From Alphaproteobacteria bacterium (GTDB taxonomy: Bacteria > Pseudomonadota > Alphaproteobacteria > SP197): a DNA stretch of 64,000 nucleotides. The stretch covers positions 1,178,012-1,242,011 of the forward strand of contig OZ219917.1 of NCBI GenBank assembly GCA_964291415.2, read 5' to 3'. A model generated the notes under the pieces. It saw nothing but the letters and a program-made list of their open reading frames with translations, made no database searches and was not told the DNA's origin. This document shows, one piece after another, positions 1 through 29,170 of this stretch (the stretch's first letter is position 1; each line of letters starts with the position of its first letter). Made by a program: the position numbers and the translations under genes.

Positions 1-222
1 TCGCACGGCACCGGTCCGCGCCTGCATGACCTGCGCCACCGGTTCGCCGTGAACACGCTGCTTGGGTGGTATCGCAACGAAGTCGATGTCGAACGTCACA
101 TCCCGCAACTCGCGACCTGGCTCGGCCATGCCCATGTGAGCGATACCTACTGGTATCTCACCGCCACGCCGGAGTTGCTGCATCTGGCCGCCCGACGTCT
201 CGACCGCAGGGCGCCGTCATGA
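1..222 (+). CDS. RIT element recombinase B (C-terminal part, truncated by window edge)
   Basis: Frame 1 reads GPRLHDLRHRFAVNTLLGWYR...LATWLGH...TYWYLTATPELL*, the C-terminus typical of the middle RIT recombinase; ATGA overlap with the next gene. Confidence 0.85.
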   Translation, partial: SHGTGPRLHDLRHRFAVNTLLGWYRNEVDVERHIPQLATWLGHAHVSDTYWYLTATPELLHLAARRLDRRAPS

Positions 223-1217
223 GCGATGCGGCAGACTTCCCGCGGCTGCTCGCGCTGTTCTTCACCGAGCGTCTCATGCGACAGCGCCAGGCCAGCCCGC
301 ACACCATCGCCAGCTACCGTTCGACGTTCCGCCTCCTGGTGCTCTACGCCCAGCGCGTGTTGAACACACCGCCCTCGGCGATGGCGCTCGCCGACTTCGA
401 CACCGAGCTGCTCGGCGACTTCCTCGGCCATCTCGAGACCGAACGCGGCAACGATGCGCGGACCCGCAACACCCGCCTTGCCGCCATCCGTTCGTTCTTC
501 CGCTTCGTCGCCTTGCAGGAACCCCGCCACGCCGCCCTGGCCCAGAGGGTCCTGGCCATCCCGGACAAGCGCTACACCCGCCGCCCCGTGACCTGGCTCG
601 AGCGCCCCGAAGTCGAGGCGCTCCTCGCGGCGCCGGACCCGCGATCCCGCAGCGGACGCCGCGACCGCGCCTTGCTGCTCGTGGCAGTCCAGACCGGACT
701 GCGCGCCTCGGAGCTCACCGGACTGCGATGCGAGGATGTTCAGCTCGGCGCCGGCGCCCACGTGCGGTGTCACGGCAAGGGACGAAAGGAGCGGTGCACG
801 CCGCTGCGCAAGGATGCGGCGAAGGCACTCCGGGCGTGGCTGGCCGAACGCCGCGGCGAGCCGCGCGACCCCGTGTTCCCCAATCAGCGCGGCGGCCCGC
901 TGAGCCATGACAGCCTCGCCTACCTCCTGGGCAAGCACGTGACGACCGCGCGGGCTCGATGTCCCTCGCTCGCCAGGAAACGTGTCAGCGCCCATTCATT
1001 GCGCCATTCGTGCGCCATGGAACTCCTTCACAGCGGTGTCGACCGCGCGGTCATTGCATTGTGGCTCGGTCATGAATCCGTCGAGACCACGTACGTCTAT
1101 CTGCACGCCGACCTGAAACTGAAGGAAAAGGCCATGGCGCACACTCAACCTTCACATGTGCCGCACACGCGTTACCGGCCCGACGATGACGTGTTGGCAT
1201 TCCTGAACAGCCTGTGA
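219..1217 (+). CDS. RIT element recombinase C (XerD-like tyrosine recombinase)
   Basis: SPHTIASYR N-terminal SAM-like domain; TGLRASEL, GKGRKER, HSLRHS, WLGH and TYVYLHADL motifs. Confidence 0.9.
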   Translation: MSDAADFPRLLALFFTERLMRQRQASPHTIASYRSTFRLLVLYAQRVLNTPPSAMALADFDTELLGDFLGHLETERGNDARTRNTRLAAIRSFFRFVALQEPRHAALAQRVLAIPDKRYTRRPVTWLERPEVEALLAAPDPRSRSGRRDRALLLVAVQTGLRASELTGLRCEDVQLGAGAHVRCHGKGRKERCTPLRKDAAKALRAWLAERRGEPRDPVFPNQRGGPLSHDSLAYLLGKHVTTARARCPSLARKRVSAHSLRHSCAMELLHSGVDRAVIALWLGHESVETTYVYLHADLKLKEKAMAHTQPSHVPHTRYRPDDDVLAFLNSL

Positions 1218-1300
1218 TTATCCCGGAATCAAGGTCCCTTCGAGCACGCTCCCCGCCCGTCTCCGCCGTCGATTCCGGAGTAAGACGGATCCGGCAATAA
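1218..1300. repeat. RIT terminal recombinase-binding repeats
   Basis: TTATCCCGGAATC (1218-1230) is inverted relative to GATTCCGGAGTAA (1271-1283) and GATCCGGCAATAA (1288-1300). Confidence 0.7.
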
Positions 1301-2280
1301 TGTCGCAGATCGTGGAGACGAACATCCTCGATCCCGGCCTCGTTGCGGGCCCTGTACCAGAGCCCGATCTCGCATGAGCGTGGCCGCGCAGGATCGCGCG
1401 GCGAGGGAAAGACCCAGACGCTGCTCGCCCTTGGCTGACGCTCGACAATCTCCTGGGCGGCGGCCGATAGCCAGACTTCGCGGGGCCCGGTCTTTGCATC
1501 GATCAGCCTGAGTGAGGCGCCGTGGACCTCGCGCCACCGCAGTCTGGTGATCTCGCCGCGTCGGCATCCGGTCAGCAGGAGCAGGCGGATCATGTCGGCC
1601 TGAGGTTGGTACGTGGGACGCGTCGCGACCATTCTGTCCAGTGTCTGGTAGAGGCAGGCGATTTCCTGCCTCGACAGGAACCGCGTCAGCGGCGGGCGCC
1701 TGTTTCGCTTCACGCTTCGCGTCGGGTCGCTGCTGATGTGGCCGCTCGCAACGGCGAACTTCATGATGCGGCGCAACGTTTGCAGCACCATGTTGGCGCC
1801 GCCCGGTGCAACCTTGCTGTAGGCATCGAACCACTTCTCAACATGTCGCGGTCCGATGTGATCGAGCCGCAGGGAACCGAATGACGGCAGCAACTGCCTC
1901 TTCAGTTCCCGGGCAAGGTATGCACGCCGTTGAGGTGTGCAGTGGTCGAGGACCGCTTCCTTCCATGGCCCTGTGGCGAAGGCGGAAAAGAGCGGGACAA
2001 CCCTGTCGGGCTTGCGATCGCCGGATCGTTCCTGGAGCATGAGGGTCAGGCAGTCTCGACGCGCCTCATCGATGGACTTTAGTGCCGCGGATCCGATGGT
2101 TGTTCGCGCCGGGCGTCCGTTCCTGAATTCCTGCCAGACATAGCTGCGATGGCCCGAGGACCGGACCCGCACACCAAAGCCGGCGAGAGAGGTGTCCCAG
2201 ACGGTGTACTCGACCTCACGGGGACGGAGTCTTTCGACAACAGCCTCCGTCAACCTGACCTTTCTCGCCCTGGTTCTCAT
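1300..2280 (-). pseudogene. Tyrosine integrase B of element 1, interrupted by the RIT element
   Basis: MRTRARKVRLT...WDTSLAGFGVRV arm-binding domain, TGCRRGEI, DAKTG, DVRLHDLRH, then homology to 9242-10393 stops abruptly; LLGH and catalytic Tyr are missing. Confidence 0.85.
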
Positions 2281-3398
2281 GCCAGACCCTCCGACAGAAC
2301 CGGCGCGAAGAGATTGATGGCCTGTCGAATCGTTTCGTCGGTGAGATGCGTGTAGCGCAGGGTCGAGGACGCCCTGGCGTGGCCAAGGAGTTTGCCGATC
2401 GCAAGAATGGTCTCGCCATTCTGGAGCGCGACGCTGGCATAGGAGTGGCGCAGATCGTGCAGGCGGACGCCGTTCAATCCGGCTTCCGCACGGATTTGCC
2501 GCCAGAATTCGTCGAGATGATGCCGTTTCGGCTTTGTTGCCGAAAAGACCCATGTGGACTTCCGCGGCAGGTTGTCGAGGACATCGCGCGCGGCTTGCGC
2601 CAGCCAGACCGTGCGCGGGCCGGTCTTGCTGTCCGGCAGGAACAATCGGCCTTCACGGTAATCCCTCCACCTGAGCATGATGATCTCACCCTTGCGGCAG
2701 CCGGTCAGGAGAAGCATCTGCACGGCGGCGGTATGCAACGGACGTCTTGATTGGTGGCGTGCCAGAACGGCGGCAAGACTGCGGTACTCCTCCGGCCGGA
2801 GAAACCGTTCGCGTAAGGTCTCGCGGTAGCGGCGGATACCGACGCAGGGGTTGCTGTTCTCCGGCCTGTAGTCCCAGATTTCGGCCTTCTGCATGATGAC
2901 GGACAGGATCGGTAGGGAGCGGTTGGCCGCCGCTGGCGTTGCATGCAGCGACCGGAACCAGGTTGCGACGTCCTGCTGGGTGATGTCGCTGATGATGCGG
3001 TCGGCGAAGAAGGGCAGGATCTGCCTCTTGAGATAGATCCGGTTGGCCGTGAGGGTGCCGGGCTTCCAGCGCCGCTTGTAGTGGTCAAGGACTTCCTCGG
3101 CGACAGTCTCGAAGAGTGCGTCCTTATCTGTCCAGGGATCCGCAGAGTCGCCGTTCCGGTACGCAGCCAGCATCGCGCGTGCCCGTTCACGAGCCTGCGC
3201 CATGGTCACGGCTCCGGCATCGTCGAGGGTCTTCCAGATTCTCCGGCCCTCGTGCTGAGACTGAATGAAGTAGCGTCTGGCGCCCGAGGGCATGATGCGC
3301 AGGCCAAATCCCTTCAGTTCGGTGTCCCTCACGTCCAGGATGACTTTCTTTGGCTTGAGCGTATCGACGCGGTGCTGGGTGAGGTGTAGCGTGGCCAT
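2277..3398 (-). CDS. Tyrosine integrase A of element 1 (arm-binding N-terminal domain)
   Basis: MATLHLTQHRVDTLKP, RDTELKGFGLRI, TGCRKGEI, DSKTG, HDLRH, LLGH, TLRY; homolog of 8114-9238. Confidence 0.9.
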   Translation of the reverse strand: MATLHLTQHRVDTLKPKKVILDVRDTELKGFGLRIMPSGARRYFIQSQHEGRRIWKTLDDAGAVTMAQARERARAMLAAYRNGDSADPWTDKDALFETVAEEVLDHYKRRWKPGTLTANRIYLKRQILPFFADRIISDITQQDVATWFRSLHATPAAANRSLPILSVIMQKAEIWDYRPENSNPCVGIRRYRETLRERFLRPEEYRSLAAVLARHQSRRPLHTAAVQMLLLTGCRKGEIIMLRWRDYREGRLFLPDSKTGPRTVWLAQAARDVLDNLPRKSTWVFSATKPKRHHLDEFWRQIRAEAGLNGVRLHDLRHSYASVALQNGETILAIGKLLGHARASSTLRYTHLTDETIRQAINLFAPVLSEGLA

Positions 3399-3504
3399 GG
3401 TTGTTTCCTCCGGTGTTCTGTGGCACTGGGGGAAGAATGGGGCCGCCTTTTCGCCCAAGTGTTGCACAAAACGAAAGAAAATACGTGTGTATTTTCCGTG
3501 GGTT

Positions 3505-3530
3505 AGCACTCAAAAGTGCGCCTCTTGTGT
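3505..3530. other. Predicted att end of dual-integrase element 1
   Basis: AGCACT-CAAA-AGTGCG-CCTCTT-GTGT has the same architecture, and a similar distance to the integrase start, as the left end of element 2. Confidence 0.6.
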
Positions 3531-3587
3531 AGCACGGAATGGCGGATATCGTGCGCCCTGAAGTTCGACACGATCGCGGTGGCAGGC

Positions 3588-4886
3588 ATGGCACAGCTTG
3601 CGCAGTCGTCTATCCGCCAGAGAGCCGCGAGGGCTCTTCCCGGTGGTACGTTCGGCAACGTCTCCGGAGATCTCGTCATTGCCCGGGGCAGCGGCAGCCG
3701 CGTGTGGGACGATGAAGGCCGCGAGTACATCGACTATCTCATCGGCTCGGGCCCCATGCTCATCGGGCATGCCCATCCCGAGGTCACGAGCGCGGTGCGC
3801 AGCCAGCTCGAAACGGGGACGACGTTCTTTGCCAGCAATCCCGAGGGCATCGCCCTCGCCGAAGCCATCATCGACGCCGTGCCGGCCGCCGAAAAGGTTC
3901 GTTTCACGAGTACGGGCTCGGAAGCCGACGCCTTTGCCATGCGCCTTGCCCGTGCCCATACGGGACGCCCGAAAATTCTCAAGTTCGAGGGCGGCTACCA
4001 CGGCTACAGCGACTACGCACTGATGAGCCTCGCGCCGAAAACGTCCGGAAACTCTCCCCGCCCGATTCCCGATTCCGCGGGCATTCCCGACACGGTGAGG
4101 GACACGATCCTTGTGGCGCCGTTCAACGATGCAGGTGCGGTGGAAAGTCTCTTGAGGGAGTACGGATCCGAGATCGCGGCGGTGTTCCTCGAGCCGATGC
4201 AGCGCCTCATCCCGCCGCAACCGGATTTCCTTGCCGCCTTGCGGAACCTGACGCGAGAACACGATGTGCTCCTCGTGTTCGACGAGGTGGTCACGGGATT
4301 CCGGCTGGGCATGGGCGGCGCCCAGGAATACTACGGAGTCGTTCCGGACCTCTGTACGCTCGGCAAGGTGATCGGGGGCGGCTTCCCGCTTGCAGCCATT
4401 GCAGGACGCGAGGACATCATGGCCGCCTTTGACAGCGAGCAGGCCGGCGCCGGGCGGTTCGTGCCGCAGGTCGGCACGCTCTCCGGCAATCCCGTGGCGG
4501 CCATGGCCGGCCTTGCAACGCTCGGCGTCCTGTCGCGTCCCGGCGTCTTTGAGCGACTCTTCGACACGGGCCGCCGCCTGATGGCGGCCCTCGAGAGGAT
4601 CCTGGCTGACAACGGGATCGATGCCCGGGTGGTCGGCGAACCTCCTCTGTTCGATGTCGTCTTCACCCATGGCGCCGTCAGCAATCACCGCGACATGCTG
4701 GCTGCCAACGCCGCGATGCTGAAGCGATTCAACGCTCTCCTCATGGAGAATGGCGTTCTCAAGGCGGATTCCAAGATCTACGTTTCCACGGCCATCGACG
4801 ACGAGGACATCACCCGTACGATTGCCGCAATGGAAGACGCCATCGGCCGCCTTGCCCGGGAATGTCACGCCGGTTACGTGTCATGA
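3588..4886 (+). CDS. Class III PLP aminotransferase (glutamate-1-semialdehyde aminomutase-like)
   Basis: YIDYLIGSGPMLIGH, STGSEA, FEGGYHG, FDEVVTGFR, TLGKVIGGGFP, GTLSGNP. Confidence 0.9.
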   Translation: MAQLAQSSIRQRAARALPGGTFGNVSGDLVIARGSGSRVWDDEGREYIDYLIGSGPMLIGHAHPEVTSAVRSQLETGTTFFASNPEGIALAEAIIDAVPAAEKVRFTSTGSEADAFAMRLARAHTGRPKILKFEGGYHGYSDYALMSLAPKTSGNSPRPIPDSAGIPDTVRDTILVAPFNDAGAVESLLREYGSEIAAVFLEPMQRLIPPQPDFLAALRNLTREHDVLLVFDEVVTGFRLGMGGAQEYYGVVPDLCTLGKVIGGGFPLAAIAGREDIMAAFDSEQAGAGRFVPQVGTLSGNPVAAMAGLATLGVLSRPGVFERLFDTGRRLMAALERILADNGIDARVVGEPPLFDVVFTHGAVSNHRDMLAANAAMLKRFNALLMENGVLKADSKIYVSTAIDDEDITRTIAAMEDAIGRLARECHAGYVS

Positions 4887-6013
4887 CGGATGTCAGTGTC
4901 GATGCCTCCGGGACATTCCTGATCCTGGGGTCCAGGCGCTTTCACGCCATCTGGCTGCGCGACAATGCGGCCGATCCCGAGACCCGTGACCCCGGCAATG
5001 GTCAGAGGCTGATTGCACTGGGCGCCATCCCGTCCAATCTCCGCATTGCCTCCGCGGCCGTCAGCAACACCACACTCATGGTCAACTTCGCCCCGGAGAT
5101 GAGGACGATCGCCTTCGACTTGTCCTGGCTCGAGCGGAATGCCTACGACCGGACGGGAGTTGACGGGCGTGGCTGGACGGATCCGGCAATCACCATGTGG
5201 ACCGGCGCCCGGCTGGGCGAGGCGCCGGTCGCGGACCTTGGGGATCTTGAGATGCGCGGCGCTGCGCTGCGCGACTGGCTTGGCCACGTCCGGCGCTATG
5301 GTGTGGCGCGGGTGATCAACGGGCCGGCGGCGCCCGGAGCGCTCTTTCGCATCGTCGATCTCTTCGGTCACGTGAGGGAGACCAACTATGGCCGTCACTT
5401 CGACGTTCGCACCCAGGTGAACCCGGTGAATCTTGCCTATACCGGACTCGCCCTTCAGGCCCATACCGACAACCCCTACCGGGACCCGGTGCCGACGATT
5501 CAACTGCTTTACTGTCTCGAGAGTTCGCTTGCCGGCGGCGACAGCATGGTCATCGACGGATTTGCCGCCGTTCGCCGCCTGCAGGACGAGAATCCGGATC
5601 ACTTCGATGTGCTTGCCGATCACTGTGCACGCTTCGCCTTTGACGGCGAGGATGGCGTCTCGCTCGCCGCCCGCCGTCCGCTGATCGAACTGGCGCCGGA
5701 CGGAGAACTCAGGTGCGTGCGTTTCAACAACCGGTCCCTGGCGGCCGTGAGGGATGTGCCCTTCGAGCGCATGGCCACGTGGTATGCGGCCTACCGGCAC
5801 CTTGGCGACATCGTCGACGACCCGATGATGGCGATTTCGTTCCGCCTGGAACCCGGCGAGTGCTTTGTTGTCGACAACACCCGCGTTCTTCACGGCCGTA
5901 CGGCGTGGACAGGCGCCGGCAACCGCTGGCTCCAGGGCTGCTATGCGGACATGGACGGGCTGCGCTCGACACACGAGGCGATGATGCAGGCAACATCGCG
6001 GACGCCGGTCTGA
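4883..6013 (+). CDS. tmpA: 2-(trimethylamino)ethylphosphonate dioxygenase (gamma-butyrobetaine dioxygenase-like)
   Basis: FHAIWLRDN, AHTDNPYRDPVP, DNTRVLHGR, RWLQGCYAD; translationally coupled to an HD protein. Confidence 0.75.
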   Translation: MTDVSVDASGTFLILGSRRFHAIWLRDNAADPETRDPGNGQRLIALGAIPSNLRIASAAVSNTTLMVNFAPEMRTIAFDLSWLERNAYDRTGVDGRGWTDPAITMWTGARLGEAPVADLGDLEMRGAALRDWLGHVRRYGVARVINGPAAPGALFRIVDLFGHVRETNYGRHFDVRTQVNPVNLAYTGLALQAHTDNPYRDPVPTIQLLYCLESSLAGGDSMVIDGFAAVRRLQDENPDHFDVLADHCARFAFDGEDGVSLAARRPLIELAPDGELRCVRFNNRSLAAVRDVPFERMATWYAAYRHLGDIVDDPMMAISFRLEPGECFVVDNTRVLHGRTAWTGAGNRWLQGCYADMDGLRSTHEAMMQATSRTPV

Positions 6014-6603
6014 TGGCCCAGGCGATCATCGATTGCCTGGCTGCCATCTTCGAAGACGTGGCGGCCGTCGAGTACCTTGGCGAGGACGTGACGATCGCCG
6101 AACACATGCTGCAGAGCGCCACCGTTGCCCAGAGAAGCGGCAGGAAGGAGGCGGTCATCGTCGGAGCGCTGCTTCACGACATCGGCCATGTGGCAGGCGA
6201 TTCCGGGATGTTCTCCATGACCGACATCCGGGACCGTCACCACGAGGTGGCCGGCGCCCGACTGGTGGAGCGTTTCTTTCCCGCCGTCGTGACCGACTGC
6301 ATACGCCACCATGTGGCGGCCAAGCGCTACCTCTCGGCTACCAGGCGTGGTTACCTGGAGAGGTTGAGCGACGCGTCGCGCCATTCGCTTTCCCTCCAGG
6401 GCGGCCCGATGGAGGCACACGAGGCCGGGCAGTTTGCCCGACACCCGCACCTCGGCGACATCATCGCCGTACGCCTCCTGGATGACGCCGGGAAGCGGCC
6501 CGGCATGAAGACGCCCGGATTTTCGCATTTCGTCCCGATCATCGAGAGCCTGGTGGAGGAACACCGGCGAAGCCAGAACAAGGAGGCGCATGATGCTGCT
6601 TGA
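6013..6603 (+). CDS. tmpB: PhnZ-like HD-domain diiron oxygenase (C-P bond cleavage)
   Basis: EYLGEDVTIAEHMLQ, LLHDIGH, HHVAAKRYL, SLSLQGGPM, DDAGK; TGATG overlap with tmpA. Confidence 0.75.
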   Translation: MAQAIIDCLAAIFEDVAAVEYLGEDVTIAEHMLQSATVAQRSGRKEAVIVGALLHDIGHVAGDSGMFSMTDIRDRHHEVAGARLVERFFPAVVTDCIRHHVAAKRYLSATRRGYLERLSDASRHSLSLQGGPMEAHEAGQFARHPHLGDIIAVRLLDDAGKRPGMKTPGFSHFVPIIESLVEEHRRSQNKEAHDAA

Positions 6604-6925
6604 CGTGCGAACCTACACCTGCCGTCCCGGCATGCTCAAAAGACACATGGAACTCTATGAGGCGTTCGGCAAGGAACCGCAGACGAGACACCTTGGACAG
6701 CCCCTGGCATGGCTGGTCACCGAGACCGGCAATCCCAACCAGTTTGTCCATATCTGGGTCTACGAGAATGCCGGTGACCGCGAGGCGCGTCGGAAGGCGA
6801 TGCAGGCGGATCCCGACTGGCAGGACTACCTGGCCCGCAGCGCCGAACTCGGCGCCCTCGAGAGTCAGGAGAACCGGCTCATGACGCCGGCAGGTTTCTT
6901 TCCGCCACCCGTCTGCCGGTCGTGA
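6590..6925 (+). CDS. NIPSNAP family protein
   Basis: DVRTYTCRPG, GNPNQFVHIWVY, DREARRKAMQADPDW. Confidence 0.9.
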   Translation: MMLLDVRTYTCRPGMLKRHMELYEAFGKEPQTRHLGQPLAWLVTETGNPNQFVHIWVYENAGDREARRKAMQADPDWQDYLARSAELGALESQENRLMTPAGFFPPPVCRS

Positions 6926-7617
6926 CCATGCCGGTCATTGCCGGCAATCCGCTGCCTTTTCCACAGGGGGGCGGCCTTGAGCCATCACGCACGGCGCTTC
7001 TCGTCATCGACATGCAGCGGGATTTCTGTGCGGAGAATGGCTACATGCACCGTCTCGGAGCCGACCTGGCGCGCCTGAGACAACCTGTCGAGCCGATTCG
7101 CCGTATCCTCGGCGCGGCGCGCCGGTGCGGGCTCACGATCATTCACACGCGCGAGGGCTATGCTCCGGATCTCTCGGACCTGCAGCCCTGGAAGGTTGGC
7201 GGCGCCGCCAACGAGGCCATCGGCAGCACCGGACCTCTGGGCCGGGCGCTCGTCCGGGGCGAGGAGGGGTGGAACATCATCGACGAACTCGCTCCGTCGC
7301 CCGGCGAGGACGTGTTCGACAAGGCAAGCTACGGGGTCTTCGCAACGACCGCGATCGACGCCGACCTTCGGGCGCGGGACATCCGGGCGGCGATCCTGGT
7401 CGGGCTCACCACCGATTGCTGTGTCACGTCGACCCTGCGCGAGGCCCTGGATCGCGGCATCGAGTGCGTGGTCGTCGAAGACTGCACGGCCGCGGCAAGC
7501 CAGCGGCGACACGATGCGGCCATCGACCTCATCCGCTCGTCCGGTGGCGTCTTCGGAACTCTCGCGAGGAGCGACGCTGTCATCGAGGCGCTCGAAACGA
7601 CGCATCGCCGGCGCTGA
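6922..7617 (+). CDS. Cysteine hydrolase (isochorismatase family, biuret hydrolase-like)
   Basis: LLVIDMQRDF, IHTREGY, DKASYG, GLTTDCCV. Confidence 0.85.
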   Translation: MTMPVIAGNPLPFPQGGGLEPSRTALLVIDMQRDFCAENGYMHRLGADLARLRQPVEPIRRILGAARRCGLTIIHTREGYAPDLSDLQPWKVGGAANEAIGSTGPLGRALVRGEEGWNIIDELAPSPGEDVFDKASYGVFATTAIDADLRARDIRAAILVGLTTDCCVTSTLREALDRGIECVVVEDCTAAASQRRHDAAIDLIRSSGGVFGTLARSDAVIEALETTHRRR

Positions 7618-7666: not shown

Positions 7667-7983
7667 ATGGTGACGTTGACACCGCTCGATGCGGCCTTCG
7701 GAGCGGAGATTCACGGAGTCCGGCTTGCCGACGATTTCGCCGAGCCGGTCATGCGTACCCTGGTGGACGCGCTTCATGCCCATCGCGTGATCGTCATCAG
7801 GGACCAGGATCTCGACAAGGACCGGTTTCTCCGGTTCGGCAGGCTGTGGGGCGATCCCATCCCCCATGTCCTCGACCACATGCGCATGGATGGCTATCCC
7901 GAACTCATGACCGTGGGCAACACCGAAGAGCGGGACAGGGACGCCAAGATCCGCAACGGCGCCGCCCTGTGGCACACCGACCA
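7667..7983 (+). pseudogene. TauD/TfdA dioxygenase, 5-prime part (split by the integrated element)
   Basis: LTPLDAAFGAEIHGVRL...VIVIRDQDL...ALWHTD, ending at the direct repeat. Confidence 0.92.
7973..7983 (+). repeat. attL core CACACCGACCA
   Basis: Identical to 30595-30605. Confidence 0.92.
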
Positions 7984-8113
7984 CGCACCTTCGGTGCTGA
8001 ACTAAATTTCAACATACTGAAACAACGACGTTTTCTCTCTCACAACTTCACGCCTGGGACGCCGGAACAAGGCGTTTCCGTGCCCAAGGTGCAACAGGGA
8101 AGGGAGAGAAACC

Positions 8114-9238
8114 ATGGCGACGAGCCGCCTTACGCAACATCGCGTCGACACCCTCAAGCCGGGCGGGAAGACCCGTGACATCCGCGACAGGGACCTCAAG
8201 GGTTTCGGTGTTCGGATCCTGTCTTCGGGGCGCAAGCGTTTCTTCCTGCACCGTCAGGTGGACGGTAGGAGGGTCTGGCATGCCATCGGTGACGCCGACG
8301 ACATCACCCTGTCGTGCGCGCGTTCAAGGGCCAAGGCCTTGTTGGCAGCGAGATTGCTTGGCGAAGAAGCGGAGGCAATCGACCACATTGCCTTCGAGGT
8401 CGTAGCCGAGGAAGTCTTCCGCCGCTACGGGCGCCACTGGAAGCCACGCACACTCAGGGTCAATCTCGGATACTACAGAAACCAGATCTTGCCCTGGTTC
8501 AAGGGCATGGCCATTGCCGCCATCACGCGTCCTGATGTTCAGAAGTGGTTCGCCTCGCTTCACTCGACACCGGTGGCTGCCGATCGCTCGGCACCGGTGC
8601 TCTCGGTCATCCTCAGACAGGCCGAGGTCTACGGCTACCGCCCCGAGGGATCCAACCCCTGCAGCGGGATCAGGCGCTATCGCAGGCGGGGCCGTGAACG
8701 ATTCCTGACTTCCGACGAGATACGCCGGTTGAGCCGGGTTCTCGACCTGCATCATGAGCGCCATCTTCTTCAGGTATCCATCGTGCGACTTCTTCTCCTG
8801 ACGGGATGCCGCAAATCGGAAATTCTGACGCTCAGCTGGTCCGAATACCGCGAGGGCAAACTTCACCTCTCGGACTCCAAGACCGGACCGCGCACGGTGT
8901 GGCTGTCGTCCGCCGCACGTCGCATCCTCGATGGCCTGCCGCGGTCAGGGCCATGGGCGTTTCCTTCTCCCCTCAAGAACCGCCATCTGTCGGAGAGCGC
9001 GCTTGACGCATTCTGGTGGGGAGTCCGAGGCGAGGCGGCAATCGACGATGTCCATTGTCATGATCTTCGCCACAGTCATGCGTCGGTGGCCCTCGCTCAT
9101 GGCGAGACGATCCTCACCATCGGCAGGCTTCTCGGCCACAACGATCCGGCGACCACGCTGAAGTACACGCACCTTGCCGATGCAACCATCCACGAGGCTG
9201 CCGAAGCTCTCGCACCCATCCTTGCCGGGGAGGACTGA
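8114..9238 (+). CDS. Tyrosine integrase A of element 2
   Basis: RDRDLKGFGVRI arm domain; TGCRKSEI, DSKTG, HDLRH, LLGH, TLKY. Confidence 0.92.
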   Translation: MATSRLTQHRVDTLKPGGKTRDIRDRDLKGFGVRILSSGRKRFFLHRQVDGRRVWHAIGDADDITLSCARSRAKALLAARLLGEEAEAIDHIAFEVVAEEVFRRYGRHWKPRTLRVNLGYYRNQILPWFKGMAIAAITRPDVQKWFASLHSTPVAADRSAPVLSVILRQAEVYGYRPEGSNPCSGIRRYRRRGRERFLTSDEIRRLSRVLDLHHERHLLQVSIVRLLLLTGCRKSEILTLSWSEYREGKLHLSDSKTGPRTVWLSSAARRILDGLPRSGPWAFPSPLKNRHLSESALDAFWWGVRGEAAIDDVHCHDLRHSHASVALAHGETILTIGRLLGHNDPATTLKYTHLADATIHEAAEALAPILAGED

Positions 9239-9241
9239 ACC

Positions 9242-10393
9242 ATGCCTCGTAGGATGCGCCTCAGTGATCGCAACGTTGCACGGTTGCGTCAGGAGGCAGC
9301 CGAGTACACGGTCTGGGACACAAGGATGGCTGGTCTCGGTGTGCGTATCCGGCCGTCCGGGCAGCGGGCGTTCATCTATCTCGATAGTGGCGGTGGATCC
9401 TCGAAACGCCGCACCCTCGGTCAGACGATGCTGATGACGGTCGAAAACGCGCGCGCCGAGTGCTTTGCCATCCAGTCCGACGGAATTGAAGCCCGGGAAA
9501 CGGTCGCAAAGGTTCCCTTGTTTCGGGAGTTCGTTGCCGGCGTCTGGCGATCAGAATGCTACGAACGTCGAAAGCCCTCTTCCCGCCGCACTGCCGACAC
9601 CATACTTGCAAGCCAGTTGTTGCCGACATTCGGTGACGTGCCACTCGACCGGATCGACCGGCGATCCGTTCACCTCTGGTTTGACCGCTACAGCGTCACT
9701 GCGCCTGGTGGGGCCAACCGCGCGCTCGACGCCTTGCGTCAGATCATGAACCACGCCAAGGCCCACGGCCATATTGAAACCAATCCTGCAAGCCGCATCC
9801 GCCGTAATCCGGTGCGCAGGCTCAACCGGTTCCTTTCCCGCATCGAAATTCGTCGCCTGCACGCTGAACTGGACCGTTGCGCTGCAGAAAATCCGTCACG
9901 TGCAGCGCAGGCAGACATCGTCCGTCTGCTCGCCTGCACCGGTTGTCGACATGGCGAGATCCGAACCTTGAAATGGCAGGAAGTCGGTGTCGGTACGCTC
10001 GATCTCAGCGACAGCAAGACAGGTCCGAGAACGGTGTATCTCAGCCGCAAGGCACGAGAGATAATCGAGCGCCAGCCACGCACCGGCAGTCCGTATGTCT
10101 TTCCCTCGACGAACGATCCGGCACAGCCCGTTTCGCAGAATCACGCATTCTGGCAACTCGTTCGAACACGTGCCGGGATCGAGGATGTGCGTCTTCACGA
10201 CCTTCGTCACACATTCGCCAGCTATGCCGTCATGCAGGGTATTCCGCTGCCGACGGTGGCGCGTCTGCTTGGTCATCGGAAGGTTTCGATGACTCTGCGA
10301 TACGCACACGTTGCTGACCGGGACGTCGAAGCGGCGGCGGAGCGGGTCGGGAAAGCCATGACAGAGATCATGGAATCGGGTGGGGGATCCTGA
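9242..10393 (+). CDS. Tyrosine integrase B of element 2
   Basis: WDTRMAGLGVRI arm domain; TGCRHGEI, DSKTG, HDLRHTFAS, LLGH, TLRY. Confidence 0.92.
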   Translation: MPRRMRLSDRNVARLRQEAAEYTVWDTRMAGLGVRIRPSGQRAFIYLDSGGGSSKRRTLGQTMLMTVENARAECFAIQSDGIEARETVAKVPLFREFVAGVWRSECYERRKPSSRRTADTILASQLLPTFGDVPLDRIDRRSVHLWFDRYSVTAPGGANRALDALRQIMNHAKAHGHIETNPASRIRRNPVRRLNRFLSRIEIRRLHAELDRCAAENPSRAAQADIVRLLACTGCRHGEIRTLKWQEVGVGTLDLSDSKTGPRTVYLSRKAREIIERQPRTGSPYVFPSTNDPAQPVSQNHAFWQLVRTRAGIEDVRLHDLRHTFASYAVMQGIPLPTVARLLGHRKVSMTLRYAHVADRDVEAAAERVGKAMTEIMESGGGS

Positions 10394-12952: not shown

Positions 12953-13267
12953 ATGAGCGAGATTGCAGGCGATCGAATCGGCCCCACCCGGAACCCACCG
13001 CACCTTGGCGAACTCATCCGCGAGAGCATGGACGATGTGGGTCGGAACGCAACCGAAACGGCGGCACGGCGTGGCTGCGAGCGCGGAATGCTGTCGCGCC
13101 TGATGAACGGCAAAGCGGGTGTGTCGGCGAACATGGCGCTGGCGCTGGTGGATATCGGCTGGGGAACTGCCGAGTACTGGATGCGGATGCAGGCGAGCTT
13201 CGAGCTTGCGCAGGTGCGCCAAGGTCGGACTGCCGAAGCGCGACACGCAGGCGCGCTACAGGCATGA
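12953..13267 (+). CDS. higA: HigA antitoxin (Xre HTH)
   Basis: NPPHLGELIRE...LSRLMNGKAGVSANMALAL...AEYWMRMQASFELAQ. Confidence 0.85.
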   Translation: MSEIAGDRIGPTRNPPHLGELIRESMDDVGRNATETAARRGCERGMLSRLMNGKAGVSANMALALVDIGWGTAEYWMRMQASFELAQVRQGRTAEARHAGALQA

Positions 13268-13382
13268 TCGAGACTCGCGCCGGGGCGGACGACCGGGGCA
13301 CTGTCCGGGCGGCTGTCCTTCATCAGGTTTCGGCCAACGGCACGCCGTCCGGGGCGCGGCGCAGAGCGGGCGGTATAGCCTG

Positions 13383-16187
13383 ATGCGCCTGTCGTGGAAC
13401 GAGGTTCGCGCTCGCGCCGCCGCCTTTGCCGAGGACTGGAAGGACGCGGCTTACGAGAAGGGGGAGACGCAGAGTTTCTACAACGCCTTTTTCGACGTGT
13501 TCGGGGTGCGGCGTCGGAGTGTCGGGCGCTACGAGGAGCATGTTAAGAAGCTCGACAACAGTTCGGGTTTCATCGACCTGTTCTGGCCGGGCGTGCTGCT
13601 CGTCGAACAGAAAAGCGCCGGGCGCGATCTCCGCAAGGCTTACGAACAGGCCGGGGACTACTTCGACGCGCTGCCGGAACACGAGCGCCCTCGTTACATC
13701 CTGGTGAGCGACTTCCAGACCTTCGAGCTTCACGATCTTGACGAACGGGAAGCCGTCGCCTTCGCGCTCGCGGATCTGCCCGCCCATGTCGAATCGTTCG
13801 GCTTCATCCTCGGCGTGCAGCGCCGGACGTTCCGCGACCAGGACCCGGCGAACATTGAGGCCGCGGAACTGGTCGGACGGCTGCACGATGCGCTCGCCGA
13901 TGCCGGACACCGGGGTCACGATCTGGAACGCTTCCTGGTGCGAGTCGTGTTCTGCATGTTCGCCGACGACACCGGGATCTTCGAACCGCGCGATATCTTT
14001 CTCGACTTCATCGAGACACGCACCAGCGAAGACGGGGCCGATCTCGGACCGTGGCTCGCGCAACTGTTCGAAGTGCTCGACACTCCGGAGGACGAGCGAG
14101 CGGCGACTCTTGACGAGGACCTTGCGCGCTTCCCCTACGTCAACGGTGATCTCTTGAAGGGGCACCTGCGGACGTTCTCGTTCAACGCGGCAATGCGCGG
14201 GGCATTGCTCGACGCCTGCCGCTTCGACTGGTCGAACATCTCGCCCGCGATCTTCGGCGCGCTGTTCCAGTCGGTCATGGACCCGGCGGAACGCCGAGCC
14301 CAGGGGGCGCATTACACGACCGAGAAGAACATACTCAAGGTGATCGAGCCGCTGTTCATGGACGACCTGCGTGCTGAGTTTGAGCAGGTACGCAAGCGCC
14401 GCCGTGGCCGGCTTGCTGCACTCCACCAGTTCCAGGCAAAGCTTGGCAATCTGACGTTCTTCGACCCGGCCTGCGGCTGCGGCAATTTCCTCATCATCGC
14501 GTACCGGGAATTGCGGTTGCTGGAAATCGAGGTCATCCGGGAGATACGGGACGCGACCGCCGCGACCGATCAGGCGGTACTCGATGCGGCATGGCAGTCA
14601 GTAGTGGACGTGGATCAGTTCTACGGGATCGAGCTTGGCGAGTTCCCGACCCGCATCGCGGAGACCGTGCTGTGGATGATGGACCACATCATGAACAACC
14701 GGCTGAGCCTTGAGTTCGGTCAGACCTTCGTTCGTATCCCGCTAGAGAAGTCGCCGCATATCGTCTACGGCGACGCGCTGGAAACAGATTGGTCGGGTCT
14801 GCTGCCGTCGGACGACTGCTCCTTCGTGCTCGGCAATCCGCCGTTCGTGGGTTCGAAGTACCAGACGGCAGAGCAGCGTGCGCAGGTGCGTGGAATCGCG
14901 GCGCTCGGCAAGGGCGGTGGCACGCTCGATTACGTCGCCGCGTGGTTCATCAAGGCGGGAGAGTATCTGAAGGGCAGCTGCGCTCGGGTTGGCTTCGTCG
15001 CGACCAACTCGATCACGCAGGGCGAGCAAGTCGCGCAGCTATGGCCGGTCCTGTTCGGACGCTGCAAGCTGGAGATCGCCTTCGCGCACCGGACTTTCGC
15101 GTGGGGATCGGACGCGCGCGGCAAGGCGCATGTGCATGTCGTCATTCTCGGCCTCGACCGGCGGAACGCTGCACGAGCAGAGAAGCGGCTTTTCAGCTAT
15201 CCCGATATCAACGGTGATCCGGAAGAGAGCAGCCATTCGGCGCTGTCGCCGTACCTGTTCGACGCGGGCGGGTTGTCGGACCCGCATTTGGTGGTCCGGG
15301 AGGAAAGTGCACCGATCAACGGTATGCCGCAGCTTCTGACTGGCTCACAGCCCATCGATGGCGGCAAGTACATATTCGATGCAGCGGAACGTGGCGCGTT
15401 TCTGGAGGTGGAGCCGGAAGCCGCGCCCTGGATTCGACCGTTCATCGGCGCGCGGGAATACTTGCAGGGTGGAGAGCGGTGGATTCTGGCGCTGCACGAC
15501 GCTCCGCCGGCAGTTCTGGCGCGACTGCCGCGCGTGCGGGAGCGGATCGCCGCCGTTCGGGCCTTTCGGCAACGAAGCCAACGCAAGTCCACACTCAAGC
15601 TGGCCGAAACCCCGACGCTCTGGCAGATCAACGTCGTTCCCACGGCTCCGTTTCTAGTGATTCCGGAGGTCAGTTCGGAGCGACGGGAGTATGCTCCCAT
15701 CGGCTGGTTGGAGCCGCCTACGATACCCAGCAACCTCGTTCGCATCTTGAGCAACGCAACTTTGTCGAACTTCGCGCTGCTGACCTCGGCCATGCATATG
15801 GCGTGGCTGCGCCACATCGGCGGGCGCCTGAAGAGCGATTACCGCTATTCCATCGGTCTCGTCTACAACACGTTCCCGCCGCCGCCCAAGGGAAGGGACT
15901 TGTCGAAGTTAGAGCCACTCGCCCAAGCTGTCCTGGATGCACGCGCTGCCCATTCGGGCGCAACGCTCGCCGACCTCTACGATCCGGACCTGATGGCGCC
16001 GAACCTTCGCCGGGCACATCAGAAGCTCGATCGTGCGGTGGATCGGCTCTACCGGCGCTCGGGGTTCGCATCCGAGCGGGAACGTGTTGAATACCTGTTC
16101 ATGCTCTACGAGAGACTGCTCGCTCCGTTGACCGACGCGACAAAATCGAAGGGGCGCAGGCGTAAAGTCCAGGGTCGTGCGACATGA
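13383..16187 (+). CDS. MmeI-like type IIL restriction-modification enzyme
   Basis: LSWNEVRARAAAF, FIDLFWPGVLLVEQKS (PD-ExK), GAHYT, FDPACGCGNFL, GNPPF, GGRLKSDYRYS, TLADLYDP. Confidence 0.92.
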   Translation: MRLSWNEVRARAAAFAEDWKDAAYEKGETQSFYNAFFDVFGVRRRSVGRYEEHVKKLDNSSGFIDLFWPGVLLVEQKSAGRDLRKAYEQAGDYFDALPEHERPRYILVSDFQTFELHDLDEREAVAFALADLPAHVESFGFILGVQRRTFRDQDPANIEAAELVGRLHDALADAGHRGHDLERFLVRVVFCMFADDTGIFEPRDIFLDFIETRTSEDGADLGPWLAQLFEVLDTPEDERAATLDEDLARFPYVNGDLLKGHLRTFSFNAAMRGALLDACRFDWSNISPAIFGALFQSVMDPAERRAQGAHYTTEKNILKVIEPLFMDDLRAEFEQVRKRRRGRLAALHQFQAKLGNLTFFDPACGCGNFLIIAYRELRLLEIEVIREIRDATAATDQAVLDAAWQSVVDVDQFYGIELGEFPTRIAETVLWMMDHIMNNRLSLEFGQTFVRIPLEKSPHIVYGDALETDWSGLLPSDDCSFVLGNPPFVGSKYQTAEQRAQVRGIAALGKGGGTLDYVAAWFIKAGEYLKGSCARVGFVATNSITQGEQVAQLWPVLFGRCKLEIAFAHRTFAWGSDARGKAHVHVVILGLDRRNAARAEKRLFSYPDINGDPEESSHSALSPYLFDAGGLSDPHLVVREESAPINGMPQLLTGSQPIDGGKYIFDAAERGAFLEVEPEAAPWIRPFIGAREYLQGGERWILALHDAPPAVLARLPRVRERIAAVRAFRQRSQRKSTLKLAETPTLWQINVVPTAPFLVIPEVSSERREYAPIGWLEPPTIPSNLVRILSNATLSNFALLTSAMHMAWLRHIGGRLKSDYRYSIGLVYNTFPPPPKGRDLSKLEPLAQAVLDARAAHSGATLADLYDPDLMAPNLRRAHQKLDRAVDRLYRRSGFASERERVEYLFMLYERLLAPLTDATKSKGRRRKVQGRAT

Positions 16188-16275
16188 TCCATTCTCTTGG
16201 AGGTGAGAGCGCTGACGGTCAGCAGACCAGGATCTGCCTGGACGCATTGAGAACTATGCCAATGCGGGAACGAAA

Positions 16276-16458
16276 ATGACAGACCTTTCCGAAATCATTG
16301 GAGGCCTGATCGCCACCGGAAAGGAGGGCGACCACTGGGACTTCAAACGTGATTCGCATACCAAGACAGGCGACTTGATCAAGGACATCATGTGCCTTGC
16401 CAACACGCCCCGACATGCTGGAGACCGCTATATCGTCTATGGTGTCGACGACTGTTAG
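16276..16458 (+). pseudogene. AlbA_2/Schlafen-like domain fragment truncated by an IS end
   Basis: EGDHWDFKR...KDIMCLAN...YIVYGVDD; the stop codon lies inside the IS inverted repeat. Confidence 0.75.
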
Positions 16459-17067
16459 CGACGGTCAGAAAGTGCGCATAGTCGATGAAGTTCCCTTGAT
16501 GAGGGCTACCAGATGTAGAGGTGGGCACCTGGGATTACGGCGTTGATGACTCTGGCGCATTCGCCTAACTCCGGTGAAACACACTGACATAGTCTAGTTC
16601 AACATCCCAGGCCGCCGCCTCCGGAGGCGTCACCTCGACAAAGGTCGTCTCCCGCTTCAGCCGCCAGTAGCGCAACGAACTGCACGAGATGCCGTGAAGG
16701 CGGCAGAACTCGGCCTGGGTGCCGAGGAAACGCTCGTACTCCTCACAGATCTCGCGCCACCGGGCAGCGCCCTTCCTCGGCAACCGTGAGCGAACAACAT
16801 CGGTGCCCGACATGACAATCTCCCTTCGCTTGGAACAAAACGCCAAGCGATATCGCCAGTGATCAGCGACTCAAGACCGTCGCAAAGTGACCGGTTACGA
16901 GGTGACGGCGCCGGAGGCGGCAGCCTGGGATGTTGAACTGGCCTTTGGCGGCGGTATGGTCCTGCGTCATCGGAAGTCCTGATGTTGGGAGGCTGGCTGC
17001 GGCTCAGAACCAACCCGCCACAAGGGCGGTCACGCCAAACGCTTACACTTCCTTACCGTCGCCAACA
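16453..17067. mobile_element. Internally deleted IS21-like element containing IS66 debris
   Basis: TGTTAGCGACGGTCAGAAAGTG (16453) versus reverse complement TGTTGGCGACGGTAAGGAAGTG (ends 17067), 19/22 identical; IS66-type terminus CGCTTAC at 17040-17046. Confidence 0.6.
16565..16813 (-). pseudogene. IS66 TnpA accessory protein remnant
   Basis: WREICEEY...TQAEFCRLHGIS...LRYWR...FVEV...WDVEL. Confidence 0.75.
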
Positions 17068-17339
17068 ACTACAGTAGAGGAGCCCGCAACGAATGAAGAA
17101 CGCTACTTGTCGCTTCGCACCCTCACTCTTCGGAGACTTTACCGGGAAGTCTGGCGTTCTCCCATCCGTGTAGCTTGTCACGAAGTTCGGATATGCCTAA
17201 GTTGGCAACTCCGAAGTCAGGGACGCCGCACGGCGCATGGAGGCGAGAATCGTGACGACCAGGAAGGGCGTTCCAGTCACGTTCCGGTCATAAACTGGAG
17301 CAAACCAGCACCACTAGTGGGAATGCGGGCTAGTTCAGT

Positions 17340-18308
17340 CTATCTCCCTTGAACAAAAAGCGATTGAATCGCCCTACGATGTTTGCGGACTGTCGATTCA
17401 GAGAGCGCCGAGAATTCCGAAATTTCGCGGATATCCAAATCCTTCTGGCAACCTTCCAGGACCTTGAGACGATTTCGAAGTCCACGCGCGTTCCTCATTT
17501 CGAGAAGCTCCATTTGCAGAGTCTCGGCCTTTCCAGACAGATCATCCAACGCTACATTAACATACCGCAATACTCCCAAAGAACAATCGTCTCCGGTACG
17601 GCTATGGAGTAGAGGCATAACCGTCTCACGAATTGCATTCTCAATTCGGCTAGATGATTCTTCCCTGGACCACGAAAAAACATGAGACAGGGCAGGAGCC
17701 AACATACCATTTCGACGCTGGTATAGACTTTCTGCGGAACCGTCCGACATAGCGGCAAAGCCATCGTAATTCCCTAACTTCTCCCTAACAATACGAAGGT
17801 GTTTGCTTGTTCTCTCTGATGTCAGAAACACTGTCTCATTTGCATATTCACCGCGCATCGGTCCGATCAGGACATTCGCGCTACCGCCGTGGGAGACCAC
17901 TACAACCCCATCGCCAAGATTCCCCGAAAAAAAGACGTCCCCGGAAACTGCAACGAATGCAAGAGTTGCGGCAAGCTCACTGGGAGGGCTTCCCAATCCA
18001 CGCGCACGCTGGGCGATCTCTTCTTGACATACAACAAGTATTCGCTCCCGAATGCTGGCGGGATCAATCCAGGGTGCAGAGTCTCTAAGTACTTTGCTTG
18101 TAGCCTCGACAGCTGCAGCAGCACCATGCTCCGAGTGCTTCGCCGATCCGGCCCCGTCAGAAACCACGACGATTGCCATGCCGCCATCCAACGACACGCT
18201 GGAAGCGTCCTGACATGGTAAGCCGCAAAGACGATGACCCCGGCCCGCAGACGACATGGCCGCGCCGGTCCAGCGGCGTAAAGTCCGACCCGACCAGTTA
18301 TGCGTCAT
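17340..18308 (-). CDS. PP2C-family phosphatase of a TerY-P triad, with C-terminal HTH-like tail
   Basis: GRGH...PCQD, VSDGAGS, NLGDG, GEYANETVF, MSDG, TGDDCSL; tail DIREISEFSALSESTVRKH. Confidence 0.88.
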   Translation of the reverse strand: MTHNWSGRTLRRWTGAAMSSAGRGHRLCGLPCQDASSVSLDGGMAIVVVSDGAGSAKHSEHGAAAAVEATSKVLRDSAPWIDPASIRERILVVCQEEIAQRARGLGSPPSELAATLAFVAVSGDVFFSGNLGDGVVVVSHGGSANVLIGPMRGEYANETVFLTSERTSKHLRIVREKLGNYDGFAAMSDGSAESLYQRRNGMLAPALSHVFSWSREESSSRIENAIRETVMPLLHSRTGDDCSLGVLRYVNVALDDLSGKAETLQMELLEMRNARGLRNRLKVLEGCQKDLDIREISEFSALSESTVRKHRRAIQSLFVQGR

Positions 18309-18310
18309 CT

Positions 18311-18988
18311 TTAGATTTCAGCCCAGCCCTTGATACCATCGGTATCGAGAGGCACGCGCTGACCAGGTGTGCTGCCAGAAACCCGCTGAACACTCGCGCT
18401 CAACCACTCGAAAAACTTCTCGAACTCCAGTCCCCGAAGCCGCAGGGGTGCCCGAGCCGGGCTAAACTTTGCTAAGGTGTCCATGTCCGCGTCGTCTCCG
18501 ATTCCCACGGCGAACACTGACAACTCCTTTCCGTTTACCATGCGGACTACACGATCCACTGCATATTCAATGTCGTCAGTCGGCATACCATCCGTCATGA
18601 GAACCAACCATGGTTGATAATAGTCAACTCCCTTATCCTTGTACTCCTGCTTGCGCTTTCCAAGAATTCGAATCGTCTCATTGACCGCCTCACCCATTGG
18701 TGTGACACCGTCGGCTTCCATAGCCATGTCCGGCTTCCTTTCCACAGGCCCGAAGTTGGCAAGCAACTGAACGCCGCCATTGCCAAAAGTTACAATACCC
18801 ACCTCTGCAGAATACCGAGCCACATCGTCCTCGAATAGTGAGGAGTAAAAGCGATTCACTCCGCGCCTTAGCTCGATTACTTTGTCGCCCATCATCGAAC
18901 GGCTTGTATCCAAACACAGTACTACAGGCACACGTGGTGTGGGGTTCTCTACCAGATCTTGCCCACGAACCATCAGTTCGGTTCCCAT
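18311..18988 (-). CDS. terY: TerY-like vWA domain protein
   Basis: PRVPVVLCLDTSRSM (MIDAS), GVTPMG, DYYQPWLVLMTDG, FFEWLSAS. Confidence 0.9.
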   Translation of the reverse strand: MGTELMVRGQDLVENPTPRVPVVLCLDTSRSMMGDKVIELRRGVNRFYSSLFEDDVARYSAEVGIVTFGNGGVQLLANFGPVERKPDMAMEADGVTPMGEAVNETIRILGKRKQEYKDKGVDYYQPWLVLMTDGMPTDDIEYAVDRVVRMVNGKELSVFAVGIGDDADMDTLAKFSPARAPLRLRGLEFEKFFEWLSASVQRVSGSTPGQRVPLDTDGIKGWAEI

Positions 18989-19081
18989 GGAATTCTCCTT
19001 CAGCCTCAGTTGCGAATGCTATGCATAAGCGCTGCAGCACCACCAATGCTCACAACTTGTTCGTGCTTCGCATAGTTTCTG

Positions 19082-23289: not shown

Positions 23290-23351
23290 CGGCGTTTCCT
23301 TCGTGTCTGAGGGCGCTACCCGAAGCGGCGCGGTGCGCTACAATGCGGACC

Positions 23352-27641: not shown

Positions 27642-27875
27642 GCCGGTTGCGCTCCCGGGACCTCTTCCACGCGCCGGGCGGCGCAGTTCTCCCGGATCGC
27701 CTGATCGAGCTGACGGACCATGGTTTCGGGACGCCCTCGACGTCACCCCGGTCACGGCAGCACGCTGGCTCATGACCTTCCAGGAGCGTACGATGCGCCG
27801 GCGCGCCATGCTGCAACAGACGCGAACCGCGAAGGAGGGGGCAAGGACAGCCTCACCCACCAGGAGCATCGCCTC

Positions 27876-28807: not shown

Positions 28808-29170
28808 TCCACCTTCACCGCCCTCGCCCGCCTCGAGAGACGGAGAGCCCCGCAGGCCACGCGGTGTCGCCGCCCGCCGCCGCCCACCGCCGAGTGCGAT
28901 GGCCGGGGCGGCCGAGGGTGATTGACGGGCGATCATCGGCGCCTCGCCGCGAAACGCCTCTCTACGGGCTTTCGTGGCGCTCTCAGGCGCGACACGCATC
29001 GTGCTGCAGCGATCGGTCTTTCCGCGGCATGGACGGCCCGCCGTCCCGCACTCTCAGCCGGTGGCCGCCGCGTCACAAGAACCGTGAGGCAGGCCATGCC
29101 GGATGCCGTGTCGCGCCTGGGATACCCGGCGGCCGTGGCAGCGGCCCGGCCGCGGGATCCGCTGGTGGCT

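Follow-up and report, generated by a model that had tools for sequence, protein, structure and literature searches.

The 64,000-nucleotide stretch of an Alphaproteobacteria bacterium genome analyzed here (contig OZ219917.1, positions 1,178,012 to 1,242,011, hereafter the window) contains a 22.6-kb element, element 2 (7974-30594), which splits a TauD gene and carries at its integrase-proximal end a hairpin site that is real, conserved and unusual. The initial annotation had likened this end to the nic site of a MOBF origin of transfer (oriT) and had raised two possibilities, a fused attachment (att) site and oriT or a relaxase-assisted integration. The comparisons reported below separate these two ideas. 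Integration and excision are very probably performed by two tandem tyrosine integrases, while there is about an even chance, judged from sequence likeness, that the site fuses the att core with the inverted repeat IR2 and nic of a MOBF oriT.

Read along the bottom strand from 7998 to 7973, the site is AGCACCGAAGGTGCG-TGGTCG-GTGT-G, exactly as first annotated, that is AGCACC-GAA-GGTGC-G-TGGTCG-GTGT-G. Its arms GCACC (7997-7993) and GGTGC (7989-7985) make a 5-bp stem around a GAA loop (hairpin or palindrome at 7985-7997, minus strand); this stem is conserved in the family, and its arms are those of R388 IR2. The proximal arm (7989-7985) is followed by a G at 7984, and GGTGC forms with GGTGT a direct repeat spaced by one helical turn. 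The hairpin is sited about 115 nt upstream of the integrase 1 gene (int1), on the opposite strand. With up to three mismatches allowed, the 26-mer occurs only once in the window and in none of 100 shuffles. The hairpin folds as DNA; single-sequence folding is unexceptional (z = -1.7), and the support for the structure is comparative. The attL copy of an 11-bp direct repeat lies at 7973-7983 (minus strand; bottom strand TGGTCGGTGTG), and within it an obligatory 10-nt block, N5+GGTGT, occupies 7983-7974. The switch from element to host DNA falls between 7974 and 7973, which is also where a match to known nic sequences would place the nick.

The family was surveyed in 23 genomes of the genus. The pattern AGCAC-N-loop-N-GTGCG-N6-GTGT gave 43 matches in 13 of them, against 4 for its reversed control, and GCACC-loop-GGTGCG-N2-9-GGTGT gave 76 matches in 16, against 1. 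Homologues of int1 are found in 14 of the 22 other genomes, several genomes have at least 13 matches, and the motif stands about 115 nt upstream of int1 in 12 of 12 close int1 loci, which were chosen by protein, independently of the motif. The loops vary in both sequence and length (GAA, AAA, GCA, ACA, ACG, CACA, CAAA). The fifth pair is perfect in 38 of the 43 matches, and in four of the five imperfect ones the change sits in the distal arm, with GGTGCG kept. This proximal arm, GGTGCG, is present in 41 of the 43; the exceptions are AGTGCG in Element 1, a second element of the window, where the change is compensated in the distal arm, and an unpaired TGTGCG (G013:1280656). The stem covaries in three versions: GCACC/GGTGC, GCACT/AGTGC (Element 1) and GCATC/GATGC (L075, a member with N4 spacing). 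The hairpin end of Element 1 (3506-3534, plus strand) has the layout that the initial annotation had ascribed to it, GCACT-CAAA-AGTGC-G-CCTCTT-GTGT at 3506-3530, and its stem represents a compensatory change relative to that of element 2.

The distance from the hairpin to GTGT defines spacing classes. GCG-N6-GTGT accompanies int1 proteins at least 68% identical to that of element 2, plus Element 1; GCG-N7-GTGT accompanies those about 57-63% identical; and GCG-N4-GTGT those at 43-45%. Throughout the N6 and N7 groups it is the integrase-side end that bears the hairpin, at a distance of about 115-145 nt from int1. Beyond the genus, a class-wide pattern search of 401 genomes was mostly noise, with 40 places matched compared with about 20 when the pattern was reversed; in one of them (G038) a relaxase lies within 6 kb of the match, but a search there found no ribbon-helix-helix (RHH) gene or core repeat, and the matches in G045 and G305 were uninformative.

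The R388 record (L031) reads gcgcaccgaaaggtgcg-tattgtct^atag between trwA and stbA (^ marks a nick or junction here and below). Compared with this record, the likeness noted in the initial annotation proved sound: the five stem pairs GCACC/GGTGC and the next G are identical, the loop is purine-rich, and GTNT^purine lies 3' of the hairpin. R388 differs in its sixth stem pair and its GAAA loop, that of element 2 being one base shorter. It also has 8 nt from hairpin to nick versus 10-11 nt here, of which 4-5 are unconstrained, and GTCT in place of GTGT. Its accessory gene is on the hairpin side, whereas element 2 has its RHH gene on the other side and a site that is split by chromosomal integration. 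Mutagenesis of the R388 site, in the portion of the study available (PMC4176350), found the loop free, the distal arm tolerant, the proximal arm and G17 fixed, T23 fixed and a purine at +1. The family has the same tolerance pattern, with the G17 equivalent and the T at -3 invariant, the proximal arm fixed, and the loop and distal arm variable.

The conserved structure with its covarying stems, 115 nt upstream of int1 on the opposite strand, would also suit another single-strand function of the transferred DNA, in which the hairpin is not nicked and instead primes the complementary strand or acts as a single-strand promoter for the integrase genes. Such a role is very improbable: a stem of 5 bp is short by the standard of the single-strand origins or promoters that are known, and the fixed G, the fixed classes of GGTGT distance and the identity with IR2 would be left unexplained.

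The other MOBF sites compared share the nic end of the motif. In the F record (L035), gcgtggggtgt^gg stands ahead of traM and on the strand opposite to it, which agrees with the GTGT ending given in the initial annotation. F, pYAZ2 and a B. cenocepacia HI2424 plasmid resemble the element in GCG...GGTGT^G and in a nick strand opposite the transfer genes, and the far-side start of element 2, GAC, corresponds to GTGT^GAC of both beta-proteobacterial plasmids. In these plasmids the motif lies upstream of trwA-like genes. They differ in their N4 spacing, their nic positions being assigned from the motif, and F differs in having no adjacent IR2-type hairpin in the stretch read. Plasmid relatives of the element's relaxase are at most 42% identical to it, and four of the five plasmid loci (L032-L034, L068, L069) have GCG-N4-GTGT upstream of a trwA-like gene. 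The GCACC hairpin is absent from all five, and on the Cereibacter plasmid no site could be named.

The element encodes a candidate nicking enzyme. The MOBF relaxase-helicase gene (23343-27641, plus strand; 1432 aa; TrwC domain plus AAA_30/UvrD) has an N-domain 39% identical to R388 TrwC, which bears out its description as TrwC-like. The protein keeps the Tyr pairs, the HUH motif and the third histidine, together with Arg81, which contacts G17, and Ser89, Pro91 and Gln159 of the T23 pocket. The site is located in an intergenic region beside the RHH gene, as expected of an oriT, and no other site combining a hairpin with GCG-N-GT[GC]T was found within element 2.

The att side of the site is defined by the element's junctions. 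Element 2 interrupts a TauD/TfdA-family dioxygenase gene, whose 5' part (7667-8005, plus strand) covers Pfam profile positions 3-104, with its last 7 codons element-encoded, and whose 3' part (30595-31161, plus strand) is matched to profile positions 100-266 at 30577-31161. Joining both parts restores the frame ...WHTD^QSYEE across the core. The 11-bp repeat CACACCGACCA is present at 7973-7983 and 30595-30605; the second, attR copy (minus strand) lies between the element's P' arm, which starts at 30594, and host TauD, which is found again from 30606. The empty site ...CACACCGACCA^GTCCTACGAG was also found, in contigs of runs X24 and X4 that pass 7983 directly into GTCCTACGAG.

Both ends were sought for 33 elements. 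Of these, 23 carry exactly the same 10 nt (N5+GGTGT) ahead of the junction at either end, and 2 differ there by a single mismatch; in the remaining 8 the far end was not found (L040/41, L046/47, G012_2518, G013_1681, G010C2_740, G014_2425, G004C2_314 and G004C1_1099, the last with only a doubtful match). In the N7 class, identity still begins six nt before GTGT in three of six elements, so that it is GTGT and not the hairpin that anchors the identity block. Past GTGT^ the identity extends rightward by 0 nt in 10 of 21 cases, by +1 in 7, by +2 in 2 and by +4 in 2, which is near chance given the +1 purine bias; leftward, 7 of 14 N6-class targets additionally match the element at CG, GCG or TGCG. 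Reconstructed attB sites (n=21) are conserved at -5 to -1 only (G 19/21, GTGT 21/21) and weakly at +1 (purine 18/21), and the reconstructed attP sites have GTGT and a +1 purine in 21/21. No dyad or inverted core-type sites were seen around the overlap in attP or attB. A sequence that is free yet matched to its partner is typically the mark of a tyrosine-recombinase overlap region. Both elements with an end mismatch (L056/L057 in G005, L080/L094 in G014) differ at -6, which is the middle of a 9-bp block (-10 to -2) or lies beside the middle of an 8-bp one; this position may mark a part of the overlap that is free of the homology check.

The arms of attP are organized accordingly for an integrase. 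Direct repeats of the GTTGCAC(Y)NGGGG type, which would be bound by the integrases, occur on both arms at about -110 and +150, and GAGAGAGAA (GAGAGA type) and TTCTCTC blocks stand in inverted order at about -58 and +54, centered on the core; GACGACA/TGTCGTC repeats adjoin the RHH gene. In element 2, the conserved blocks of the P arm (8030-8100) are TTCTCTCTCAC at about 8033-8043, the inverted partner of a P'-arm block, and a GTGCAACAGG block at about 8084-8098 (GTTGCAC repeat, bottom strand), both with a presumed arm-type role. The P' arm (30279-30594), which is also the RHH upstream region, has GGAGAGAAG at about 30535-30543, inverted repeats of the GACGACA type at 30450-30459/30479-30488, a GTTGCA repeat at about 30423-30448 and further inverted repeats at 30268-30334. 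Integrase 1 (8114-9238, plus strand), a tyrosine recombinase of the P4 type, has an arm-binding domain and retains the catalytic R, K, HxxR, H and Y; integrase 2 (9242-10393, plus strand), encoded in tandem with it and 37% identical, likewise has an arm-binding domain and its catalytic residues. Because of the homology rule, the repeats on both arms and the two intact integrases, recombination is attributed to the tyrosine integrases.

The same three observations tell against the other half of the original proposal, a relaxase that catalyzes or assists integration. Here an HUH relaxase carried on the transferred strand would cut chromosomal N5-GGTGT^R and join the element to it, as TrwC does at oriT-like targets. 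Strand transfer would indeed leave this junction order and an identity that stops sharply at GTGT^, and it fits a dyad-less target whose conservation is confined to the 5' side of the junction and +1. TrwC also offers a precedent: in the part of PMC3264647 available, it integrates into a minimal 14+3 target with a 6+2 essential core and yields a product of the same topology (target 5' part ^ element...hairpin-nic 5' part ^ target 3' part). The targets of that study differ in that their bases are read by protein (6+2, better 14+3), whereas here a lineage-specific 5-mer has to be identical. Moreover, TrwC targets need the proximal arm, and attB has only the partial CG/GCG preference, in 7 of the 14 sites of the N6 group. 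Each element has an N5 of its own, the same at both of its ends, and this is true even of four (three in G014, one in G010) with relaxase domains that in each case share about 90% identity with that of element 2. We know of no relaxase that checks its target by DNA-DNA homology. Two intact integrases and a full arm-type attP are present in every element, and relaxase-less elements with clean ends exist (G013_2580). Relaxase-driven integration is thus very unlikely. With two tyrosine integrases and a lineage-specific 10-nt identity, the element does not fit the description of an HUH rolling-circle transposon (IS91/Helitron) either.

The closest known arrangement for the att site is the heterobivalent attP of the P4/lambda type, with which it shares adjacent integrase genes, an identical core at the junctions, precise insertion, arm repeats and a short, variable, homologous overlap. 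It differs in having two tandem integrases, no inverted core-type sites and an attB conserved on one side only (GGTGT), in using a different protein-coding or tRNA target in each lineage, and in the mini-hairpin abutting the core. XerC/XerD at dif and the two tyrosine recombinases of Tn554 are two-recombinase systems; by analogy, a pair of unlike integrases could explain the unlike half-sites and core sides seen here.

Several results weigh against a role of the site in transfer. The 4-5 nt between GCG and GGTGT are unconstrained and the spacer is 6-7 nt long instead of the canonical 4, while the equivalent positions are strictly read in R388, according to the same portion of PMC4176350. The fixed 8-nt segment between hairpin and nick is lacking here, although it is found in the distant N4 subgroup. 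The TrwC residues that read T18, T21 and C24 of the spacer (Asn182, Asp183, Val186, Arg190, Asp216, Asn218, Lys262) are not conserved. The RHH gene lies 316 nt 3' of the putative nick and would be passed to the recipient ahead of the rest, opposite to the order in R388 and F. The 6-nt spacer and this position of the RHH gene on the non-hairpin side had already been entered as caveats in the initial annotation, correctly so. A perfect hairpin occurs without a relaxase in cis in at least five elements (G014 d and f, G014_2425, G013_2580, G004C2_314), of which G014 d and f are about 10 kb long with broken RHH genes and G013_2580 is complete, 10 kb long and clean-ended. Hairpins in relatives that lack a relaxase had been named at the outset as evidence that would speak against an oriT; they weaken this reading without overturning it, because mobilization in trans is possible. 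The covariation check proposed at the same time did not discriminate. The relaxase tree has four clades, and spacing tracks these and the integrase identity classes equally.

The main alternative, less likely than the fused site but quite possible, is an att site only, in which the hairpin or palindrome and GGTGT serve the integrases or an accessory factor, the nic likeness is convergent or vestigial, and the relaxase nicks elsewhere. The N5 homology rule, the classical attP architecture with repeats on both arms and the constant integrase-side position of the hairpin in the N6 and N7 groups all suit this explanation. The same is true of the unread spacer of non-canonical length, of the hairpins that persist in relaxase-less and RHH-less elements, including the complete 10-kb one, and of the GGTGC/GGTGT direct repeat, which, with its halves one helical turn apart, could be two sites for one protein. 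However, an att site of this kind is not expected to lack both an overlap dyad and a conserved left half-site in attB, or to keep its identity block anchored on GTGT while the hairpin distance varies (N4, N6, N7). The variable 3-4 nt center with covarying arms suits a hairpin more than a duplex dimer site, the identity with the R388 IR2 arms combined with the same tolerance pattern would be a large coincidence, and no alternative MOBF-like site was found in the element. In addition, int1, int2 and the GGTGT core persist without the hairpin in four elements (L082-L085), which have no relaxase or RHH gene either, and the hairpin was present in every relaxase-bearing element examined. A fused att/oriT remains a good reading because the conservation within the family matches the R388 pattern and the element/host switch falls at the predicted nick.

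Three of the hairpin-less elements (L082-L084) occupy the same porin-gene site, CCACTGGTGT, the fourth being L085. This porin-like gene site, CCACTGGTGT^GGCCG..GAAGAGATGATGGCCGA, is occupied in four species (L079, L081-L084; G014, G012, G013, G004), with one occupant carrying a hairpin and four lacking it; the hairpin-less copies there may be old, vertically inherited insertions.

A more distant variant in G020 (L099) has the R388 arrangement: the spacing is the canonical N4, and on the hairpin side, at a distance of 300 nt, there is an RHH gene with a relaxase next to it, so that the RHH position missing from element 2 is seen in this relative. At this 'B' locus the 3' flank shares homology with the P' arm of a different element, and no core repeat was found at the integrase end. 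The hairpin-core-P' unit may be an oriT inside the element or may mark where it adjoins a decayed neighbor in tandem. Some 200-400 nt past its N4-type hairpin and core, five or six GG(T/A)AAC(G/A)TGTG-like repeats (L099 7985-8190; G020:C1:3275984-3276189) resemble iterons or arm sites.

Element 2 is an integrative mobilizable element, with its own integrase and relaxase and no mating apparatus or coupling protein. This assignment is made because no VirB4-family (PF03135) match was found on any contig of the genome, despite four TrwC-type relaxase genes, and because the only coupling protein (T4CP; C4:511910-513061) is on another contig, beside the contig C4 relaxase. Among the element open reading frames (ORFs) scanned, some small ones being outside the scan, no mating-pair or coupling-protein Pfam domains were found. 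For transfer, such elements would have to rely on a helper in another cell line or on a transfer system that escaped detection. The NikA-like RHH relaxosome accessory gene (29916-30278, minus strand) has a weak Pfam match and homologues at the same place in sister elements, and is transcribed away from the core.

In recombination by the integrases, the five variable nt and part of GGTGT very probably form the overlap, in which attP and attB must match by base pairing; each lineage would carry its own 5-nt 'address', allowing many lineages to coexist in one genome. If the fused att/oriT reading is right, the site could also work in transfer, as follows. On the hairpin strand of the excised circle, hairpin-GCG-N5-GGTGT^R would be followed, about 100-300 nt on, by the RHH operator-like repeats and the RHH gene. 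A TrwC-type relaxase would bind the invariant proximal arm GGTGCG and nick after GGTGT as TrwC and TraI do, tolerating an unread 4-5 nt of extra spacer. Because integration parts the hairpin and nick from the RHH side, a complete oriT would exist only after excision, and transfer would then depend on another element to supply, as helper functions, a coupling protein and a type IV secretion system. In its full form the proposal is tentative and rather doubtful: one 25-30 bp site would be both the two-integrase attP crossover core and the relaxase IR2/nic, with the nick on the exact bond of the element/host switch and transfer gated by excision. At its 3' end the transferred strand would carry the N5-GGTGT 'address' that matches the chromosomal target, which might let relaxase-bound single strands help to find or prime it.

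If true, this would be a natural case of an oriT and an attachment site sharing nucleotides, and a physical switch in which no excision means no complete oriT. The kinds of parts involved, an integrative mobilizable element, a MOBF oriT and a tyrosine-integrase att, are known. No described case of an oriT overlapping attP was found in full-text searches of the open literature, including the available portion of PMC3132442 and a 2026 preprint, subscription journals being outside this coverage. The target rule, by which an invariable GGTGT follows a 5-mer that is free in sequence but has to agree with the one carried by the element, has a further consequence: at least 13 related islands can therefore occupy different genes of one genome. 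The rule also lends itself to direct testing as a kind of reprogrammable target selection by tyrosine integrases.

The remainder of element 2 includes cargo genes. An MmeI-like restriction-modification enzyme with all five MmeI domains is encoded at 13119-16187 (plus strand), and a PP2C phosphatase / VWA / protein-kinase trio at 17340-20767 (minus strand); this cargo, 13119-20767, resembles phage defense and lies in a low-GC stretch (0.51-0.56). Right after the relaxase gene, at 27720-28880, a pair of paralogous ORFs lies in tandem; neither has a Pfam match, and they share 58% identity over 150 aa.

Element 1 (C1:1147043-1181545) resembles element 2 in having homologous integrases, a relaxase and an RHH gene. 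Its 14-bp repeat CCTCTTGTGTAGCA lies at 3521-3534, with the other copy outside the window at C1:1147043, and it is located at the 5' end of a class-III aminotransferase gene. Its tandem integrases are encoded at 1051-3509 (minus strand): int1 (2277-3509) is 55% identical to that of element 2, and int2, 47% identical, is interrupted. The int2 gene (1051-2270, minus strand) is broken after about residue 323, its C-terminal piece being about 3.4 kb leftward, outside the window (C1:1175715-1175879), and the DNA that splits it holds another XerC-like tyrosine recombinase gene (66-1217, plus strand).

Further traces of the family are present in the same genome. At C2:877931-877955 a family hairpin end abuts the 5' end of a tRNA-Gly(CCC) gene, its N6-GTGT overlapping the first tRNA bases; with about 25 int1 codons left, it is the remnant of a decayed element. 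A fourth hairpin end is found on contig C2 and a decayed one on contig C4. No IR2-like site was found at the contig C4 relaxase locus, the one with the T4CP.

Between both elements, 3516-7617 encodes the class-III aminotransferase, a second, intact TauD-family gene (4862-6013), an HD-domain protein, a NIPSNAP protein and an isochorismatase. At the other end of the window (59500-64000, minus strand), an open frame of more than 1480 aa runs off the window; with tandem repeats of about 310 nt, a GC3 of 0.94 and 72-76% GC, it probably encodes a repeat-rich surface or secreted protein.

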